Of a stretch of 29,443 nt of DNA, positions 22,062 through 29,443 are shown piece after piece. Numbering within the stretch: the first letter of the stretch is position 1; each line of letters opens with the position of its first letter. The notes below the pieces were generated by a model. That model had not been told where the DNA came from. It made no database searches and saw only the letters and a list, made by a program, of their open reading frames with translations. Source of the stretch: a virus (taxonomy: Duplodnaviria; Heunggongvirae; Uroviricota; Caudoviricetes); IMG/VR virus record IMGVR_UViG_2609459795_000003. One strand, given 5' to 3'. Position numbers and translations under genes: made by a program.

Positions 22062-22856
22062 TTATCTCGTCACCCTTCTCAATTGTGCTTCAGCGTAAGC
22101 TTCCTCCTGCCAGCACTTTGTAACCAGTTTATCAATGACATCTGCATATCCTTTGTACCACTGATAATCCGTCAGGTCTGGTACCAGCTTCTGGACATGA
22201 AGCCGCGCCAGTGTGGTTGGTAAACGGCTAAACCGGTTTCCACTGCAACGCCCACAAATCTTATAAACAGGCGTGCCATGAAGCCGGGTTCTTTTTTCAT
22301 CCAGGACAATACCTTTACCCTTACACCCTCTGCACGCGGTGCTGACTTCTCCCTTACCATGGCAATGCTGACATAGTTCCTTCACCCACTCTTCCTTGAT
22401 AACAGATTCCCCGCTTCTGGAGTGTTTCACCACTTCGCGCAATACATTATGAAATCCAGTACCAGCACAATGCTCACAGCGAGCCTTACTTGCCGCAGAC
22501 CTGGAATAATCAGCAAAGGCAAAATTCACAAGGTAAGGGATGATCTGTAACCGGGTTTCTTCACTCAATTTGTTCAATGTCGGGTTATCCAGTGCCATCG
22601 CGTAATTGAGCAGACCTTCAATCGCAAACTGAGGATCCTGAACACCAACTTTTGCCAGGAATAAGGCAAACCCAAGCGGTGCTTTCGACTGCACCATCCC
22701 CTGCGCAGCCATCACATCCGTAATCGTTAAACCACCTGAGCCTGTCGCCGGTGCGTCATCGCTCAATTTTGGAGATTTTGGGGAGTAATATTTTGGTAAG
22801 GCTTCAAGGTTCATGCTCGTTCTCCACTTACGCCAGCACGCCAATTGCCAGCGCAC
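22062..22856 (-). CDS. Late-gene antitermination protein Q
   Basis: 264-aa ORF (probable start at MNLEALPKYY, about 22814) with Cys/His zinc-binding motifs (CEHCAGTG ... CQHCHGKG ... CRGCKGKG ... CGRC), immediately upstream of a terminator and the lysis genes. Confidence 0.7.
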   Translation of the reverse strand: MRWQLACWRKWRTSMNLEALPKYYSPKSPKLSDDAPATGSGGLTITDVMAAQGMVQSKAPLGFALFLAKVGVQDPQFAIEGLLNYAMALDNPTLNKLSEETRLQIIPYLVNFAFADYSRSAASKARCEHCAGTGFHNVLREVVKHSRSGESVIKEEWVKELCQHCHGKGEVSTACRGCKGKGIVLDEKRTRLHGTPVYKICGRCSGNRFSRLPTTLARLHVQKLVPDLTDYQWYKGYADVIDKLVTKCWQEEAYAEAQLRRVTR

Positions 22857-23824: not shown

Positions 23825-24622
23825 TCAATGAACGGTATCGAGCAGCTTTAACAGCTCAGGGAATCGGGATTCGAAAAAGTGCGGCTGCGTCTCGCGCGGA
23901 TTTGCGGGACTGGTGATGTTCTTGCCGAACATGCAGCCTTTCGCTGTCAGCGACCAGAATTTTTTGATGTTGTTAATCGCGGTACGGCTGTATCGTTCGC
24001 GCTGTTCGACGATCCCCAGCTTCACCATCTGGTGATATGCCTGATTAGCCGTAAGGCGGATACCATACTGCTTCAGCAGTGCACTCAATGATAGCGTAGG
24101 GCGGCTTGAGCCATCGAGTGCATCAGCAGGAGCATCAATGGCATAGCGCGGTGCCAGATTCGGTAAGCCAACAGCCTCCTGAAGCTTCTGACAGGCACCA
24201 AGCACTGAAGAGTTAGACAGGTTTAACTCCCTGCGCATAAAGTCCAGCAGAATCACACCAGCCTGCATCTTGTCAGCAGCCTGCCCGGATAATTTTTCCG
24301 GTGCGCTGGTTACCATATCGAAAGTACGGATCACCTTCAGATGGAATGACGGGCTGATCCACATTGCATAGGCATACACCAGTTCTTTGCAGACATACGT
24401 CCCCTGGTTATTTCCGCCACGAATAACGTTAACTGGCTCTATATTGACCGAGTTGCAAATCTGCAACTCGCTTATTAAACGTTCAGTTTGCTCATTGCGG
24501 AGCCAGAATGCAGGCTTATGCTTATCCAGAGAACCGGCAGCCCTGTGCAGATCGTTCAGGCTGTAACGACCATAAGCATCACGACGAACTTCAATACCAT
24601 CAATGACCATCAGATTATTCAT
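23825..24622 (-). CDS. KilA-N domain protein (putative antirepressor-like)
   Basis: 265-aa ORF; N-terminal ~100 aa (MVIDGIEVRRDAYGRYSLNDLHRAAG...KPAFWLRNEQTERLISEL) has the KilA-N pattern as I recall it. Confidence 0.6.
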   Translation of the reverse strand: MNNLMVIDGIEVRRDAYGRYSLNDLHRAAGSLDKHKPAFWLRNEQTERLISELQICNSVNIEPVNVIRGGNNQGTYVCKELVYAYAMWISPSFHLKVIRTFDMVTSAPEKLSGQAADKMQAGVILLDFMRRELNLSNSSVLGACQKLQEAVGLPNLAPRYAIDAPADALDGSSRPTLSLSALLKQYGIRLTANQAYHQMVKLGIVEQRERYSRTAINNIKKFWSLTAKGCMFGKNITSPANPRETQPHFFESRFPELLKLLDTVH

Positions 24623-24641
24623 ACTTCGTTTCTCCTCTTAA

Positions 24642-25031
24642 TCAGGCGGCTGCACCCGCCGTTTTCTCGTACTTACTGATAGTGATCTCGACCTTCCCTT
24701 CCGGGATAACCGGTCCCCACTCCACCAGCATTCTTTTCACCTGACTGTCGTCTTCCCACACACCCGCGTGGGTCAGGGCGTCAAACAGCGCCTTGTTATA
24801 GTTGTCCAGATCGCGGATCCGGTTATCCGGTGGAAACAACACGATCTCCACTGCAGCAGGTGCCGACGTTGGTTTCGGCAGACGACGTAACTGCTCAACT
24901 ATTGCTGCGCACGCCGCGCTCTGGAATTTTCGCCCCGCCGTGCTTATCAGGCTCTTACCAGCAAACGCCCCTTTGTTGGGGTGTCGCCAGTACGTGTTCA
25001 CGCTGGGCGGAAAAGGCAGAATAAGCTTCAT
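24642..25031 (-). CDS. rusA: Holliday junction resolvase RusA
   Basis: 129-aa ORF beginning MKLILPFPPSVNTYW..., the characteristic RusA N-terminus; typical nin-region location. Confidence 0.8.
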   Translation of the reverse strand: MKLILPFPPSVNTYWRHPNKGAFAGKSLISTAGRKFQSAACAAIVEQLRRLPKPTSAPAAVEIVLFPPDNRIRDLDNYNKALFDALTHAGVWEDDSQVKRMLVEWGPVIPEGKVEITISKYEKTAGAAA

Positions 25032-25387
25032 ACTTTCAGGCCCCTCTCATGTAACCAGTGGGCTGCACGCAGCCTGGCGTTTTCCTCACCGGCAAGCAGT
25101 GAGCGGATAATCCCGACCGCCTCGCTGTCGTCGTCCTTCACCGCGGTATGAAGCGTTATCCCCCGGGCCACGCCACGCTTTATCGTGATGACGCCTTTTT
25201 TCTCCAGAGCACGAAGATGCTCCACCGCTGCATTCACCGAACGGTATCCCAGCATGGTTGCCACCTCCTGATTGGTTGGTGGGAAGCCACGTTCTTTCTG
25301 ATAAGAAATCAGCATATCCAGCACCTGCTGCTGGCATTGAGTTAACGTCGTCATTAAGCCCCCACGTAATTCCCTGACAGATACCAC
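25028..25387 (-). CDS. LexA-like N-terminal DNA-binding domain protein lacking the S24 peptidase domain
   Basis: 119-aa ORF (probable start MTTLTQ at about 25354). Residues MTTLTQCQQQVLDMLISYQKERGFPPTNQEVATMLGYRSVNAAVEHLRALEKKGVITIKRGVARGITL closely parallel the LexA DNA-binding domain; no Ser/Lys peptidase region follows. Confidence 0.55.
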   Translation of the reverse strand: MVSVRELRGGLMTTLTQCQQQVLDMLISYQKERGFPPTNQEVATMLGYRSVNAAVEHLRALEKKGVITIKRGVARGITLHTAVKDDDSEAVGIIRSLLAGEENARLRAAHWLHERGLKV

Positions 25388-25848
25388 TCTTCACCCGATG
25401 CAGCGCGCTTGCTGCTTTTCCGTAAGCACCGCTCACGACGCGCCAGAAAATTGTTTCGTTCTGGCTGGGAGTGGCTTTCACGGAATGCCGCCATCCACAC
25501 GGTTGCAGCACGACGGTATAAGCCCCTGGACTCCAGTTCTTCCGCCTGGCGGGTCAGGCACAAAATCACCCGGGGATCGTTAGTGCCGACATAGAAATTA
25601 CGCACAGGTCTGGTTTCACGAACTGGTTGTGGTTTCGGCTCCTGCGCTCTCTCAGTCAGGCGCGGGAAATGTCTGCGTGTATCTCCTTCACAACGGTGAG
25701 CCACACGTCCACTCTGACGTAACTTGCTTGCTGACTGCAGAACGCGCTGCCGTGAGTAACCAGCAAAAGCATCCGCAATGTCTCCGGAAGTACACCCCGG
25801 ATGGGCTTCAATGAATTTCTGAACGTCATTTAACAGACTCATGATCAC
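25354..25848 (-). CDS. PerC-like transcriptional regulator (putative)
   Basis: 164-aa ORF; C-terminal segment AEELESRGLYRRAATVWMAAF resembles the conserved PerC/Pch motif as I recall it; probable start is the ATG at about 25842. Confidence 0.4.
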   Translation of the reverse strand: MIMSLLNDVQKFIEAHPGCTSGDIADAFAGYSRQRVLQSASKLRQSGRVAHRCEGDTRRHFPRLTERAQEPKPQPVRETRPVRNFYVGTNDPRVILCLTRQAEELESRGLYRRAATVWMAAFRESHSQPERNNFLARRERCLRKSSKRAASGEEWYLSGNYVGA

Positions 25849-26786
25849 CCCCTGAATCCTGCCGGGATCTGGCTGTAGTCCACATTGTCGTAACTGGATT
25901 TGAAGTACGGGTCTTCGCGTTTTTCGGTGTACGTGCTTACGGACGGCGATAAGCGCAGGGAAAGCTCATCCCATTTTTCCCGCAGCTTCGACGGGCTGAG
26001 CACGTTACGGCACCAGAACGGATCGCGGCTGACGCGGCTGTACATCTCGCAGATTTGTTTGTGAGTACGACCATCCTGCACACACATCAGGCGAATTTCG
26101 TTTGCCCAGGCTGTCCAGTTCGGTTCTTTGGGACGAACCACCTCGCCGTCACATTCGGCAGCCTGCTCGTACAGGGCGATGATTTTTTTCCAGAGCCACT
26201 GTGCGCAGGTCAAATCATCCTGCGTCCCCCACTGGCGCTTTTTAGGGCTGAATACAACCGCATCAGGATGGCGAGTTAAAAAATCCTGTTCAGCCGTCTG
26301 CGTGTCCGGTTGCGAAGCGTCCGGACGAGAAGTTTTTTTATCTGACGGATCATGTTTTGATTTTACTGACGGATCCCCGCCAGATTCTGACGGGTGAAAA
26401 CCCGCTTTTTTGCCAGATTTCGACGCATCAAATTTTGACGGGTCAGATTTTGATGCGTCAGATTTTGACGGGTCAGAATCTGACAGTTGAGAAAAAGCCG
26501 CAGCCTGAAGCTTCGCAACGTTAAGCTGATAAACATTCGACGCATTGCGGTTACCCTGGCGACGCGCCTTACGCGTTAACCAGCCTTCTGCTTCCAGCCG
26601 TGCGATAGCCGTTCTGACGGTACTCATCCCCGCGCCAATCTGGCGGGCAATGGTTTCAATTGATGGCCAGCACACACCTTCGTCATTACTGAAATCAGCC
26701 AGGCGTGCCATAATTGCCACGCTGGATAATTTCATGCCTGACGCTGCGCAACCATCCCATACATAGCCGGTTAATTTAGTGCTCAT
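25845..26786 (-). CDS. Replication initiator (lambda O-like replisome organiser) with internal iterons
   Basis: 313-aa ORF; N-terminal wHTH-like domain, central repetitive linker (DPSKSDASKSDPSKFDASKS) encoded by 15-bp DNA repeats, distinct C-terminal domain; sits after the Cro/CII-like genes like lambda O. Confidence 0.6.
   Translation of the reverse strand: MSTKLTGYVWDGCAASGMKLSSVAIMARLADFSNDEGVCWPSIETIARQIGAGMSTVRTAIARLEAEGWLTRKARRQGNRNASNVYQLNVAKLQAAAFSQLSDSDPSKSDASKSDPSKFDASKSGKKAGFHPSESGGDPSVKSKHDPSDKKTSRPDASQPDTQTAEQDFLTRHPDAVVFSPKKRQWGTQDDLTCAQWLWKKIIALYEQAAECDGEVVRPKEPNWTAWANEIRLMCVQDGRTHKQICEMYSRVSRDPFWCRNVLSPSKLREKWDELSLRLSPSVSTYTEKREDPYFKSSYDNVDYSQIPAGFRG
26341..26490. repeat. 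Iteron array (candidate phage replication origin) inside the initiator gene
   Basis: About 8 copies of a ~15-bp unit (consensus near TCAGATTTTGACGGG); four consecutive copies at exact 15-bp spacing 26435-26490; an AT-richer stretch on the 3' side (26325-26370). Confidence 0.6.
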
Positions 26787-26795
26787 GACCGACCT

Positions 26796-27134
26796 CTATT
26801 TCCCTGAATTTACGACGAAACTTTTCGAGCGGACTGAAGCATTCATGCTCATAGCCTTCGCGGAGGTAGATAACCCGTTGTGTTTCCGGCTCCCAACGAA
26901 TGACTCTGACGGGTACTCCGTAGTGATCTTTGAACCAGCGGTTAACTTGTCGCAAAGGACTGTCTCCTTTTGCCGGTTAAAATCACCCACAGCCCACTCT
27001 GCAAAGCTGTGGGTTACAATTACCCTGCCACCTGGTACATTTACTGCATAGCAATACTCCACCTTCGCTTTTCCACCCGGTACAGGAAGCGCAATCAGTT
27101 GCGAGCGACGGTAGTGTGTTGTTAAACTATTCAT
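26796..27134 (-). CDS. Hypothetical protein with apparent frame discontinuity (possible frameshifted gene or two overlapping small genes)
   Basis: 112-aa ORF whose C-terminal third is low-complexity, while an alternative frame over 26776-26955 encodes a convincing 59-residue peptide (...[58 protein letters not shown]) with only a TTG start preceded by AAGGAG. Confidence 0.3.
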
Positions 27135-27682
27135 GCGTTAGTTTCTCCACAGTCACGACACGCCACGGCGCCCGGAGCTGCACACTCGCGGGCGTCATTA
27201 CTTTCTGAAATGCAAAAAATTTTGTAGACCAGTGCTGCATGCTCCTGCAGCTTCGAAATTGAGAGGTACAGCTCGTCGTTAATTGCTGTCTTCTCATGCG
27301 GTTCCACTACACCGTCTTCAATTGCTGAACGAATCTGTTTTGAATAACTGCCGATCTGTTCAATGACCTCCAGCAGGCGTTGGTTGATATCGGCGTTGTC
27401 CACATCCTCGACATCAGGAAGAGACACAAAGACGCCATTTGCAGACTGCGCCACAGCGTCAGCAATGAAGTGAGTTCCACCAGCACGTTGCAAAATCATT
27501 GCCCATCCCAGCGGGAAAATCTGATCGCCATCGGCACGAAGGCGGTTAAATAATGCGTTCTCTGTTACATCCAGCCAGTCAGCAGCTTCAGCGTAACCCC
27601 CCGGCAACGCTGCGATAGTTTTTCTGACAGCTTTCACGTACCACTCAGGCTGTTTTTCTACTTTCCAGTGATGCTTACCCAC
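27131..27682 (-). CDS. CII-like early regulatory protein (putative)
   Basis: 183-aa ORF immediately downstream of the Cro-like gene and upstream of the replication gene; family assignment by position and vague recollection only. Confidence 0.35.
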
Positions 27683-27935
27683 GGTTCACCTCCTGTTCCT
27701 GTGGTTTAAACCCATTCTGGTTTTGGCTAGATTGAAAACGTGCCGGATAAAGAATCTGCATTTCGCTGACTTCACCCTTAAAAAAATTGGCTAAACGTTC
27801 TGCAAGCTCGATAGATGGAATCTGCTCCAGCCTCTCAATACGACTCAACGTCGCTGGATTGACTTGAACACCCGCAGCAACATGCTGCAAAGTGAAACCA
27901 TGCGCCTTACGCACATTTCGTAATAGTGATTGCAT
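27675..27935 (-). CDS. Cro-like HTH repressor
   Basis: 86-aa ORF divergent from the CI-like gene; HTH-type segment (GFTLQHVAAGVQVNPATLSRIE); SD GGAGG 5 nt before the ATG. Confidence 0.6.
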   Translation of the reverse strand: MQSLLRNVRKAHGFTLQHVAAGVQVNPATLSRIERLEQIPSIELAERLANFFKGEVSEMQILYPARFQSSQNQNGFKPQEQEVNRG

Positions 27936-27945
27936 ATAACCTCCA

Positions 27946-28032
27946 AATATTGCGCGTTATGCATGTTATTTCACGCAATTATTTTGCGCAAGTTGATTTG
28001 CTTATCACGCAATAAAGAAATGTAATAAACGC
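27946..28032. promoter_or_regulatory. Immunity-region operator/promoter segment (OR-like) between cro-like and cI-like genes
   Basis: 97-bp divergent intergenic region with repeated CACGCAAT / TTGCGCAA-type motifs and a plus-strand -35 TTGCTT (27998-28003), 17-nt spacer, -10 TGTAAT (28021-28026) ending 6 nt before the cI ATG. Confidence 0.45.
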
Positions 28033-28725
28033 ATGAACATAGGAAACCGAGTCAGACAACTTCGCCAAGCGAAGAACATGAAAATCGCCGATCTCGCTGA
28101 AGCAATAGGAGTAGATGCGGCGAACATCTCGCGCTTAGAAACGGGTAAGCAAAAACAATTTACCGAACAAACACTGAGTAATATTGCCAAGAGCTTAGGT
28201 GTTGATATTGCTGATCTCTTTACCTCTGCCCACAAAAGTAATACTGTATATAAAAACAGTAATAATGAGGATGTTGCGCAGGTGAAGGATGTGTTCCGTA
28301 TTGAAATGCTGGATATCAGTGCCAGTGCGGGAAATGGCCTTATCCAAGGCGGTGATGTCATTGATGTGATTCATGCCATCGAATACAGAACTGATAATGC
28401 TGTATCAATGTTCGGCGGACGACCAGCCAATCACATCAAAGTTATCAACGTTCGTGGGGACAGTATGTGTCCAACCATTGAGCCAGGAGATCTCATCTTC
28501 GTTGATGTCAGCATCAATCAGTTTGATGGTGATGGTATATATGTCTTTGGTTTTGATGACAAAATATACGTTAAAAGACTTCAAATGATTCCTGACAAAC
28601 TGCTGGTGATTTCTGATAACCAGATTTACCGTGAATGGGGAATTACTAGCGAAAACGAACACCGATTCATGGTCTTTGGAAAGGTCTTAATCAGTCAGTC
28701 GCAAACCCTTAAGAGACATAATTAA
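28033..28725 (+). CDS. CI-type prophage repressor (HTH plus S24 LexA-like peptidase domain)
   Basis: 230-aa ORF; N-terminal HTH (RVRQLRQAKNMKIADLAEAIGVDAANISRLETGK), C-terminal autocleavage domain with GDSM (catalytic Ser) and VKRL (Lys); divergent from the cro-like gene. Confidence 0.85.
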   Translation: MNIGNRVRQLRQAKNMKIADLAEAIGVDAANISRLETGKQKQFTEQTLSNIAKSLGVDIADLFTSAHKSNTVYKNSNNEDVAQVKDVFRIEMLDISASAGNGLIQGGDVIDVIHAIEYRTDNAVSMFGGRPANHIKVINVRGDSMCPTIEPGDLIFVDVSINQFDGDGIYVFGFDDKIYVKRLQMIPDKLLVISDNQIYREWGITSENEHRFMVFGKVLISQSQTLKRHN

Positions 28726-28744
28726 CCTCAATATCCCATCCATC

Positions 28745-28769
28745 GGCCACCGAAAGGTGGCTTTTTATT
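28745..28769 (+). terminator. Rho-independent terminator after the cI-like gene
   Basis: GGCCACC-GAAA-GGTGGC hairpin followed by TTTTTATT, 20 nt after the cI stop. Confidence 0.65.
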
Positions 28770-28779
28770 ACCTATAAAT

Positions 28780-28830
28780 TTGCATACCTCGCAAATATTA
28801 CTTGCATATCTCGCAATTTAATTTTATCTT
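28780..28830 (+). promoter_or_regulatory. Tandem operator-like repeats with candidate rightward promoter (OL/pL-like)
   Basis: Two adjacent ~21-bp repeats TTGCATACCTCGCAAATATTA / CTTGCATATCTCGCAATTTAAT sharing the C-N-CGCAA core seen in the cI-cro intergenic region; -35 TTGCAT (28802-28807), 17-nt spacer, -10 TATCTT (28825-28830). Confidence 0.35.
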
Positions 28831-29028
28831 TTGTTCCAGACCAACTACCGGATTACAACAAAATCTGGTTGCAACACGGTGCATGTGTCGTAAGCAGTCA
28901 GTAAATGTCAAAAACGAACAGGCAGGACGCCCACGAAGTAGCCGCCTGGGGCATATGAAGTCCAGGATGATTCGTTGAGTCATGTTGTGCCACCAGGCAC
29001 TCATGTTAAAGCAGGTGTATGAAATGAA

Positions 29029-29443
29029 GTAAGCGTAAAGCCAATGCCGTCTGTAACACCTGCTCCTTGCAGACTAAATTAGAGCTCCTTCTAAATTAGA
29101 CGGAGTTCTATTGATGGATAAACCTACAGACTGGCGCTCCGGAACCCGCCGGATATTTTCTAATGAATTTAAACTTCATATGGTTGAACTGGCTTCGAAA
29201 CCAAATGCCAATGTTGCACAACTGGCCCGGGAACATGGCGTTGATAACAACCTGATTTTTAAATGGCTACGCCTCTGGCAAAGAGAAGGACGTATTTCTC
29301 GTAGAATGCCTCCAACTATTGTAGGCCCTACAGTATCACAATCTTTTCCGACCTCTCCGACTCTGGTTCCAGTGGAACTTATCGACACCCCGCGCTGTGC
29401 TACAGATGCTCCTGCTCCGGAGGCATTATCAGTTGCTTGTGCA
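29029..29443 (+). mobile_element. Left end of an insertion sequence (IS66-like terminus GTAAGCG; continues beyond window)
   Basis: Sequence GTAAGCGTAAAGCC begins at about 29029, 85 bp upstream of a transposase OrfA-type gene; IS66-family ends begin with GTAA as I recall. The other end is outside the window. Confidence 0.45.
29114..29443 (+). CDS. IS transposase OrfA-type HTH protein (partial, runs off window end)
   Basis: Open frame from ATG 29114 to the window end (110 codons: MDKPTDWRSGTRRIFSNEFKLHMVELASKPNANVAQLAREHGVDNNLIFKWLRLWQREG...); pattern typical of IS3/IS66-type OrfA/TnpA proteins. Not in the ORF track because no stop lies in the window. Confidence 0.6.
   Translation, partial: MDKPTDWRSGTRRIFSNEFKLHMVELASKPNANVAQLAREHGVDNNLIFKWLRLWQREGRISRRMPPTIVGPTVSQSFPTSPTLVPVELIDTPRCATDAPAPEALSVACA

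Follow-up and report, generated by a model that had tools for sequence, protein, structure and literature searches.

The DNA analysed here is a 29,443-nucleotide stretch from the virus record IMGVR_UViG_2609459795_000003 (hereafter the window), and our subject is a cluster of short repeats inside its replication initiator gene, which probably constitutes the replication origin of a lambdoid prophage. The initiator gene, identified from the list of open reading frames (ORFs) and by its match to PHROG 391, occupies 25845-26786 on the minus strand, encodes 313 amino acids (aa) and is of the yfdO/SfIV gp41 type. Its product aligns to the PHROG 391 profile, 'replication initiation O-like', over its full length (aa 1-313 against profile positions 1-298 of 298, E 8.6e-136). 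The protein consists, in order, of a winged-helix N-terminal domain (N-domain), a linker encoded by the repeats, a C-terminal domain (C-domain) resembling that of lambda O, and a tail resembling the end of DnaT.

The N-domain, a winged helix-turn-helix domain and the presumed repeat-binding module, is encoded at 26493-26786 on the minus strand (aa 1-98). It matches Pfam HTH_36 at aa 23-70 (E 4.3e-11), with weaker matches to GntR, MarR and DnaD_N. The C-domain, at about aa 165-277 (25956-26294, minus strand), is homologous by BLASTP to the C-terminal half of lambda O (E 4e-26), with which it has the conserved blocks WGTxxDLTxAxW and NVLSPxKLRxKW in common; matches to PHROG 277 and PHROG 9773, which are also labelled O-like, span aa 143-278. 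Searching NCBIfam and the sequences of the Protein Data Bank (PDB) with the initiator returned only weak winged-helix regulators (PaaX, MarR) and no DnaT or O structure. The first-pass annotation of this DNA had called the gene O-like, a description that fits PHROG 391 and the C-domain but not the N-domain, which belongs to HTH_36 rather than Phage_rep_O.

The surrounding genes follow the lambdoid early-right order: cI (28033-28725, plus strand), a cro-like gene, a cII-like gene (Phage_CP76), two small ORFs and the initiator. Downstream of the initiator lie a PerC-like gene (yfdN), a gene similar to the LexA DNA-binding domain, RusA, KilA-N, DUF968 and Q. As the first-pass annotation had observed, no gene resembling P or DnaC is among them, and so the window does not have the downstream P-type loader gene of lambda. 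The complete genome of phage SfIV (39.8 kb, 98.8% identical) likewise carries no annotation of a helicase, loader or primase.

Eight related repeats lie at 26340-26484, within nucleotides (nt) 301-447 of the 942-nt initiator gene. Five of them are tandem 15-bp units at 26413-26484, each containing a TCA-N5-TGA dyad, and are candidate initiator-binding sites (iterons). The dyads stand in exact 15-bp register at 26413-26423, 26428-26438, 26443-26453, 26458-26468 and 26473-26483; two example units, read on the plus strand, are GTCAGAATCTGAC (26472-26484) and GTCAGATTTTGAC (26457-26469). A sixth dyad, TCAGAATCTGG on the gene strand, lies at 26380-26390; in relatives its counterpart is often the perfect palindrome CCAGAATCTGG, and it is the most widely conserved unit of the family. 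The remaining two repeats, found by repeat search at 26340-26351 and 26364-26375, are direct copies of GATCCGTCAG(T/A) on the gene strand, 24 bp apart, each with a GATC (26348-26351 and 26372-26375). The first-pass annotation had counted about eight repeats within the coding sequence, four of them in perfect 15-bp register; total, placement and register all hold, but the units in register number five.

The periodicity is unlikely to arise by chance composition. Tandem Repeats Finder reported 26414-26477 with a period of 15 (4.3 copies, 81% matches) and of 30 (2.1 copies, 88% matches), and a second repeat search gave the same 15-bp register. Allowing up to three mismatches, the 15-mer TCAGATTTTGACGGG has seven matches in the 29 kb, where 0.91 are expected, and six of these fall in 26376-26483. 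The core YTGAYGSRTC has nine matches, where 1.41 are expected, with seven in 26342-26474, and none of 100 shuffled sequences reached that count. The repeats encode a linker, SDSDPSKSDASKSDPSKFDASKS...HPSES..GDPSV..HDPSD, also written SDSDPSKSDASKSDPSKFDASKS...HPSESGGDPSVKSKHDPSD. The tandem array corresponds to gene nt 301-375 and the distal repeats to nt 391-447, between HTH_36 and the lambda-O-like C-domain. We also noted a terminator-like GC hairpin with a T-run (CGGGTGAAAACCCG CTTTTTTGCC) at 26391-26404 on the plus strand, antisense to the initiator gene; it has the tandem array on one side and the sixth dyad on the other, and at least one relative (locus L009) lacks it.

By a nearest-neighbour stability profile the gene is least stable at 26328-26367, whether measured over 20, 30 or 40 bp, with a GC content of 0.25-0.28 (0.28 over 40 bp). 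This stretch, A-rich on the gene strand, is a candidate DNA-unwinding element and falls within the least stable 2.5% of the whole window. It corresponds to gene nt 420-459 (the 40 bp of lowest GC being nt 418-457), lies 3' of the tandem array in the direction of the gene and overlaps the two distal repeats. The AT-richer segment that had been reported 3' of the repeats is therefore present in the direction of the gene, but not on the plus-strand 3' side beyond 26490, where composition is ordinary (GC 0.48-0.52 over 26490-26560). In all six initiator genes examined, lambda included, the lowest-GC 40 bp adjoins the repeats, and it comes after them in the window, phiNP, mEp460_4F5 and lambda.

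The two GATC sites of the distal repeats are retained in 37 of 47 relatives. Aspartate codons favor GAT over GAC in the distal segment (86:26), and GAC over GAT in the tandem part (140:64); across the family the GATC pair, 24 bp apart, is fixed through the synonymous choice of GAT. In the window as a whole GATC is not enriched (115 occurrences, 113 expected), and the two sites stand out only by their conservation in relatives. A search for DnaA boxes (TTWTNCACA, at most one mismatch) yielded 55 matches for 49 expected, none of them meaningfully placed in the array. Among 64 relatives described below, 36 have, no more than about 1.3 kb downstream of the initiator, an ORF that belongs to a single cluster by single linkage, mostly adenine methyltransferases (L010, L015, L018, L024, L026, L028, L029, L040, L044, L055 and L066, among others). 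When representatives of this cluster were scanned, 13 of 15 were adenine methyltransferases (Dam PF05869 or MT-A70) and two had a ParB helix-turn-helix domain; a second, small cluster of downstream genes is a D12-class methyltransferase. The window and SfIV have no methyltransferase gene beside the initiator. A role for Dam methylation at the putative origin is no more than a hypothesis that these observations bring to mind.

A further question is whether the repeats are maintained as DNA or as peptide. Scanning one genome per species, we found 71 loci in which the N-domain type is conserved, ranging from Escherichia to Providencia, Edwardsiella, Gilliamella and Photobacterium and from 100% down to 41% identity; 64 of these, from about 25 genera across Enterobacterales, were usable. 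Every one of the 64 has an array with a periodicity of five codons, followed by a conserved segment. The TCA-N5-TGA dyad occurs 193 times in 17.3 kb of linker sequence and 135 times in 315 kb of flanking sequence, a 26-fold difference in density. TCA and TCT make up 82% of the serine codons in the linker but 25% of those in the remainder of these genes (odds ratio 14). If an in-frame TCA is taken as the sole anchor, the right half-site is TGA in 65-70% of linker cases and in 25-45% of controls elsewhere.

The distal segment (26343-26396 in the window; family consensus CCAGAATCTGGGGGGGATCCGTCAGTAAATTCAAAACAAGATCCATCA) gives the same answer at the level of single codons. Where two genes agree in an amino acid, they agree also in its codon 84-95% of the time in the distal segment and 36-61% of the time in the N-domain of the same 300 gene pairs, the N-domains being only 60-90% identical across the genera compared. 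Of 33 distinct sequences of this segment, all 33 have the same GAT, GTA and TCA codons, and the two proline codons are nearly invariant (one CCG in 31 of 33, the other CCA in 31 of 33), while the third bases of two glycine codons vary freely. Meanwhile the peptide changes (SKSD, SESD, SNSD, SKPD, SKSV, SNID, STVD, PTVE, LTVD) and the dyad is retained.

The half-sites of the dyads also change together. Among 140 distinct units collected from the relatives and defined by the 15-bp register, 73.7% of cells are complementary, as compared with 22-40% when the partner column is slid. Changes on both sides were seen in 100 cells, as opposed to 59.6 in shuffled data, and none of 500 shuffles reached the observed number. 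At the inner pair, which is not imposed by the way units were selected, both G·C (42) and A·T (35) are common. A covariation table anchored on the inner A...T only was set aside because it was noisy and collected off-register 11-mers, and the register-defined units were used in its place. The repeats are thus selected as DNA rather than as peptide. A gene may have as few as 3 or as many as 11 dyads, and close relatives differ by whole units. A comparison of repeat number across relatives had been proposed in the first-pass annotation; we do not count the observed variation against function, as it parallels the difference between lambda, with four iterons, and the Stx phages, with six.

The repeats travel with the N-domain. 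Comparison with two phages located a mosaic junction zone at 26313-26332, just past the AT-rich stretch. In mEp460_4F5, which has a different N-domain and different repeats but the same C-domain, the sequence in common with the window begins at 26332; in Citrobacter phage phiNP, which shares the N-domain and the repeats but has another C-domain (Phg_2220_C), the common sequence ends near 26313. Given these swaps and the position of the junctions, the N-domain, the repeats and the AT-rich stretch behave as one mosaic cassette. Phage SfV has a third N-domain, again of HTH_36 type, with its own repeats of about 24 bp (type TGCAC...GTGCA). Within the family the unit sequence follows the lineage of the recognition helix: STVRTAI occurs with TCA-RAW-TCTGA, TTVSAAI with YCAA-NNN-TTGA and STVYGAL with CCAGAATCTGG. 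This apparent co-variation of repeat unit and N-domain lineage is suggestive rather than conclusive, because it involves only about three lineages.

Several observations on the relatives deserve mention. The initiator of mEp460_4F5 (L002:2991-3149) contains four 23-bp repeats with a gene-strand consensus near CATYGGGTCAAAATG, and then three AT-rich repeats of 12 bp, TATTCTCTGTAG on the plus strand of the locus; with its unrelated N-domain it is a more classical candidate origin, and it ends at the same junction with the common C-domain. In four genomes, two prophages carry the same N-domain lineage and near-identical units: Enterobacter sp. ENT03 (L018/L022), Kluyvera sichuanensis (L020/L021), Providencia sp. 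PAZ2 (L041/L043) and Kosakonia quasisacchari (L009/L012). Given such double carriage, one may ask how two elements of the same origin specificity persist side by side. Enterobacterial-type initiators with N-domains 66-86% identical were also found in assemblies labelled as the non-enterobacterial species Chryseobacterium sp. (L025), Pseudomonas lundensis (L053) and Martelella alba (L027, a 742-bp contig); the probable reason is contamination or mislabelling of these assemblies. A second sharp mosaic boundary lies at the opposite end of the gene, whose last 76 bp (25845-25920), comprising the coding sequence of the tail and the part that overlaps the yfdN-like start, show 95-96% identity across many phages with otherwise unrelated initiators (SfV, mEp460, cdtI and the Stx2a and Stx2c phages).

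We conclude that 26328-26484 is probably the replication origin of a lambdoid prophage of the SfII/SfIV/CPS-53 type, embedded in its own initiator gene. The first-pass annotation had proposed an origin here, and its proposal gains from the relationship to O, the lambda-like layout, selection at the DNA level and linkage to the N-domain; we refer to the element as a putative origin. The mechanism that we envisage begins with transcription of the initiator gene from the early-right operon, through cI/cro, the cII-like gene and the two small ORFs. Dimers of the N-terminal winged-helix domain would bind the eight sites (the five 15-bp dyads, the further dyad and the two copies of GATCCGTCAG), and the resulting nucleoprotein complex would destabilize the adjoining AT-rich stretch at 26328-26367, which contains one conserved Dam site and has the other at its flank. 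The DnaB-DnaC helicase system of the host would then be brought in by the lambda-O-like C-domain and the DnaT-like tail, a route that we propose since the phage lacks genes for P, DnaC or a helicase. Binding by the initiator, unwinding at the AT-rich stretch, the role of Dam and the route of helicase recruitment are all steps that we infer. If the element is an origin, this would explain the joint movement of N-domain and repeats as one mosaic cassette.

The tail that may take part in the last of these steps is SQIPAGFRG (25848-25874, minus strand), which agrees at eight of nine positions with SQIPPGFRG, the extreme C-terminus of Escherichia coli K-12 DnaT. In the relative Z0117 the agreement extends to 14 of the last 20 residues of DnaT (E 1e-7; the loci compared were L006:2979-3518, which contains dnaT, and L004:2410-3357). 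The similarity does not include the DnaT N-terminal domain or its three-helix bundle that binds single-stranded DNA (ssDNA), and we obtained no DnaT match in Pfam, NCBIfam or PDB; it is on account of the tail alone that GenBank records label such proteins 'primosomal protein'. The DnaT-like tail sits on initiators with three different C-domains.

We tallied the C-terminal end of the initiator against the gene that follows it over 64 loci (L007-L075, with the gene starting at position 2501 and its downstream ORFs). A lambda-like end, rich in tryptophan and acidic residues, was followed by a homologue of lambda P in nine of nine cases, which was true of none of the 55 other initiators. An end of the type 'IPxGF plus acidic extension' was followed by a DnaC homologue in three of three. 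Among the 29 initiators with a DnaT-like end, none had a P-like neighbour and two (L071 and L073) had a DnaC-like one; in these two the order of a tail-bearing initiator and a DnaC homologue echoes the dnaT-dnaC operon of the host.

How DnaT recruits DnaB and DnaC is stated in the literature to be unknown (PMC4132743, PMC13377028). No statement on the function of the DnaT tail was found in PMC5778457, PMC13220808, PMC13594977, PMC4132743 or PMC13377028, and a full-text literature search for the tail motif returned nothing relevant. Because the C-terminal end pairs with the next gene, and because the handover from DnaT to DnaB-DnaC is an open question in that literature, we tentatively suggest that the (S/T)xIPxGFRG tail might be a portable docking motif for the helicase-loading or replication-restart machinery of the host, either DnaC/DnaB or PriA, although we would put this at somewhat less than an even chance. 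If the suggestion were correct, it would free these phages from the need for a P-type loader, and the choice of loading route would lie with the extreme C-terminus of the O-like initiator. The DnaT-like tail and its strict pairing with the loader gene are the more original lead of this study and may matter more than the origin, as they provide a handle on the question of how DnaT hands over to DnaB-DnaC.

Other readings of the repeats have to be weighed against an origin. They might be cis-acting protein-binding sites with some other purpose, either an operator array by which the initiator, or some other protein of the phage or host, regulates the transcription or translation of the early-right operon, or an element of copy-number or incompatibility control. 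DNA-level selection and dyads show only that something reads the DNA, the winged-helix HTH_36, GntR and MarR-like domains are typical of transcription regulators, and a 15-bp spacing is unlike that of classical iterons. However, a promoter scan of 25700-27200 found no sigma-70-like promoter, and terminator-like hairpins appeared on the antisense strand only. The position of the repeats in an O homologue, the least stable DNA beside them and the behaviour as a cassette reproduce the annotated origin of lambda, and the complete SfIV genome contains no other annotated replication gene where an origin would be expected; we therefore regard the operator reading as unlikely. It is less plausible still that the conserved sequence serves mainly as a recombination 'linker' for the exchange of N- and C-domain cassettes, with no role in replication. 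The mosaic junctions at 26313-26332 do adjoin the repeats, and the partial matches from the phage and E. coli collections have their breaks at query positions 464, 497 and 531. Yet the junction lies outside the repeats, in a conserved stretch coding for SRPDASQP, and the repeats always stay with the N-domain, each type of which (mEp460, SfV, lambda) has its own unrelated array, for which a shared recombination linker would not account.

Two readings remain. The array could be a by-product of a slippage-prone, low-complexity linker, (DPSKS)n, that acts as a flexible spacer, with the DNA similarity reflecting recent duplication. This would account for a unit of exactly five codons, for the whole-unit copy changes between the close relatives A31 and Z0117 and between L063 and L064, and for a peptide rich in serine, aspartate, lysine and proline, as in a disordered linker. 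It would not account for a dyad that is conserved where the peptide is not, for the skew of serine codons toward TCA and TCT (82% against 25% elsewhere), for a synonymous identity well above that of the N-domain (84-95% against 36-61%) or for GAT, GTA and TCA codons that stay fixed while glycine third positions drift. The compensatory changes of half-sites, too, lack a rationale at the protein level, and we give this reading hardly any credence. RNA or ssDNA structure, in the form of mRNA hairpins that tune the translation or stability of the initiator or of hairpins on unwound DNA that signal primosome assembly, was also tried as the primary reading and rejected. A transcript of the gene strand over 26325-26490 folds at -53.2 kcal/mol, against -31.3 for shuffled sequences (z = -6.9), but tandem palindromic units give such a fold automatically. 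A single unit yields a stem of only 3-5 bp, and long-range pairings could not be conserved because the copy number varies from 3 to 11 units. Rfam, moreover, had no family match in 24500-29443, and a structural role of this kind seems very improbable.

A number of points count against an origin of the lambda kind. The N-domain of lambda O is Phage_rep_O (PF04492, E 5.7e-36) and that of the window protein is HTH_36; aligning the two types with hhalign revealed no similarity (probability 0.1, with a shallow profile of four sequences), and the analogy to lambda therefore rests on architecture and on the C-domain. The units of the window measure 11-15 bp and are contiguous, at a spacing of 15 bp or about 1.4 helical turns, whereas lambda iterons measure 18-19 bp and are spaced 20-24 bp apart, so that the geometry of any complex of initiator and DNA must differ from that of lambda. 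The AT-rich stretch is only about 40 bp long and, with a GC content of 0.28, weaker than that of lambda (0.20-0.22), and in SfV and Z0117 the lowest-GC stretch stands directly before the repeats, on the opposite side. The p-values from the family comparison overstate independence because the relatives share a phylogeny, and it is the effect sizes that count. If mosaic exchange near the junction is frequent, the distal segment could look more conserved than it otherwise would; the position-specific codon pattern speaks against this, since uniform conservation through recent exchange would not produce it. The support is computational, and binding and origin firing are predicted rather than observed. 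Finally, a search of PLSDB for mini-replicons found no small plasmid with the initiator gene as its only replicon; the matches were prophages inside megaplasmids, mislabelled chromosomes and one 16-kb prophage fragment, and are uninformative. One locus, L080 (NZ_CP148542.1, 15,977 bp), was deposited as a circular E. coli 'plasmid' but is the immunity-to-lysis part of a lambdoid prophage, in which an initiator homologue, 47% identical, precedes an 'ATP-binding protein'; the record may represent a prophage fragment that was excised or misassembled.

We examined how widely the gene and its putative origin are distributed. The DNA of the initiator region is 100% identical to that of a prophage of E. 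coli AMSHJX01 and 98-99% identical to that of the Shigella phages SfII and SfIV and several E. coli phages; the gene itself is 98-100% identical to its counterparts in SfII, SfIV and E. coli prophages, and yfdO in CPS-53 of K-12 is a truncated copy. Matching DNA is present in 3,329 of 5,426 complete E. coli genomes, 1,576 of which have a near-full-length copy. The initiator type is thus very common in E. coli and occurs also in the serotype-converting Shigella phages SfII and SfIV. An origin is annotated in the initiator region in none of the phage and genome records examined, the SfIV genome paper describes a 'replication module' without mentioning an origin (PMC3851460), and we found no description of an origin for the SfII/SfIV-type prophage group in the literature. 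A defined origin would offer annotators a target. The locus is also a worked example of a DNA element that constrains the synonymous sites of a coding region, which matters for recoding and codon optimization. Elsewhere in the window, the Q-like antiterminator ORF (22062-22856, minus strand) has weak matches in NCBIfam to a DnaJ-type zinc finger (CxxCxGxG repeats).

The closest known system is phage lambda, whose GenBank record has four origin iterons annotated inside gene O, at gene nt 349-433, and an AT-rich stretch at nt 434-475; its lowest-GC 40 bp is nt 436-475. As in lambda, the repeats of the window are inside the initiator ORF, between a DNA-binding N-domain and the C-domain, and have internal dyad symmetry; after them, in the direction of the gene, comes its lowest-GC stretch; and the initiator gene stands just past cII in the early-right operon and encodes a homologous C-domain (approximately lambda O residues 180-270). 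The first-pass annotation had likened the arrangement to iterons within an O-type gene, and the match of layout and C-domain supports that comparison. The window differs in having eight sites as opposed to four, in the absence of a P gene downstream, in the DnaT-like C-terminal end and in its two conserved GATC sites.

Iterons have also been reported inside gene 18 of P22 and gene 18 of phage L, as well as gene O of lambda, with four repeats in P22 and six of 11 bp in L (bioRxiv 10.1101/2020.10.05.325894), and the Stx phages have six iterons (PMC7466680). In common with P22, L and the Stx phages, the window has a lambdoid initiator with its own distinct repeats in the coding region, in numbers that vary between relatives. 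Unlike P22 and L, which encode the gp12 helicase, and the Stx phages, which encode P, the phage in the window encodes no partner, and its repeat sequences are unrelated to theirs.

Two further classes of origin invite comparison. The iterons of plasmids such as pSC101, RK2 and P1 are typically 17-22 bp long, phased at about 22 bp and located outside the rep ORF. The window resembles these plasmids in its multiple direct repeats beside an AT-rich stretch and in its winged-helix initiator, which would bind them, but its repeats are contiguous 15-bp dyads inside the ORF and do not conform to the plasmid type. Dam-dependent origins carry GATC in the AT-rich region, as in the 13-mers of E. coli oriC and in P1 oriR. 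Like them, the window has its two GATC sites in or beside its least stable DNA, fixed at synonymous positions, and many relatives have an adenine methyltransferase gene beside the initiator; unlike them, it has only two GATC sites in its repeats and no enrichment of GATC across the window. An origin inside the initiator gene is what would be expected of a lambdoid initiator, and the element described here very probably follows that known plan, with a different DNA-binding module and its cognate repeats.

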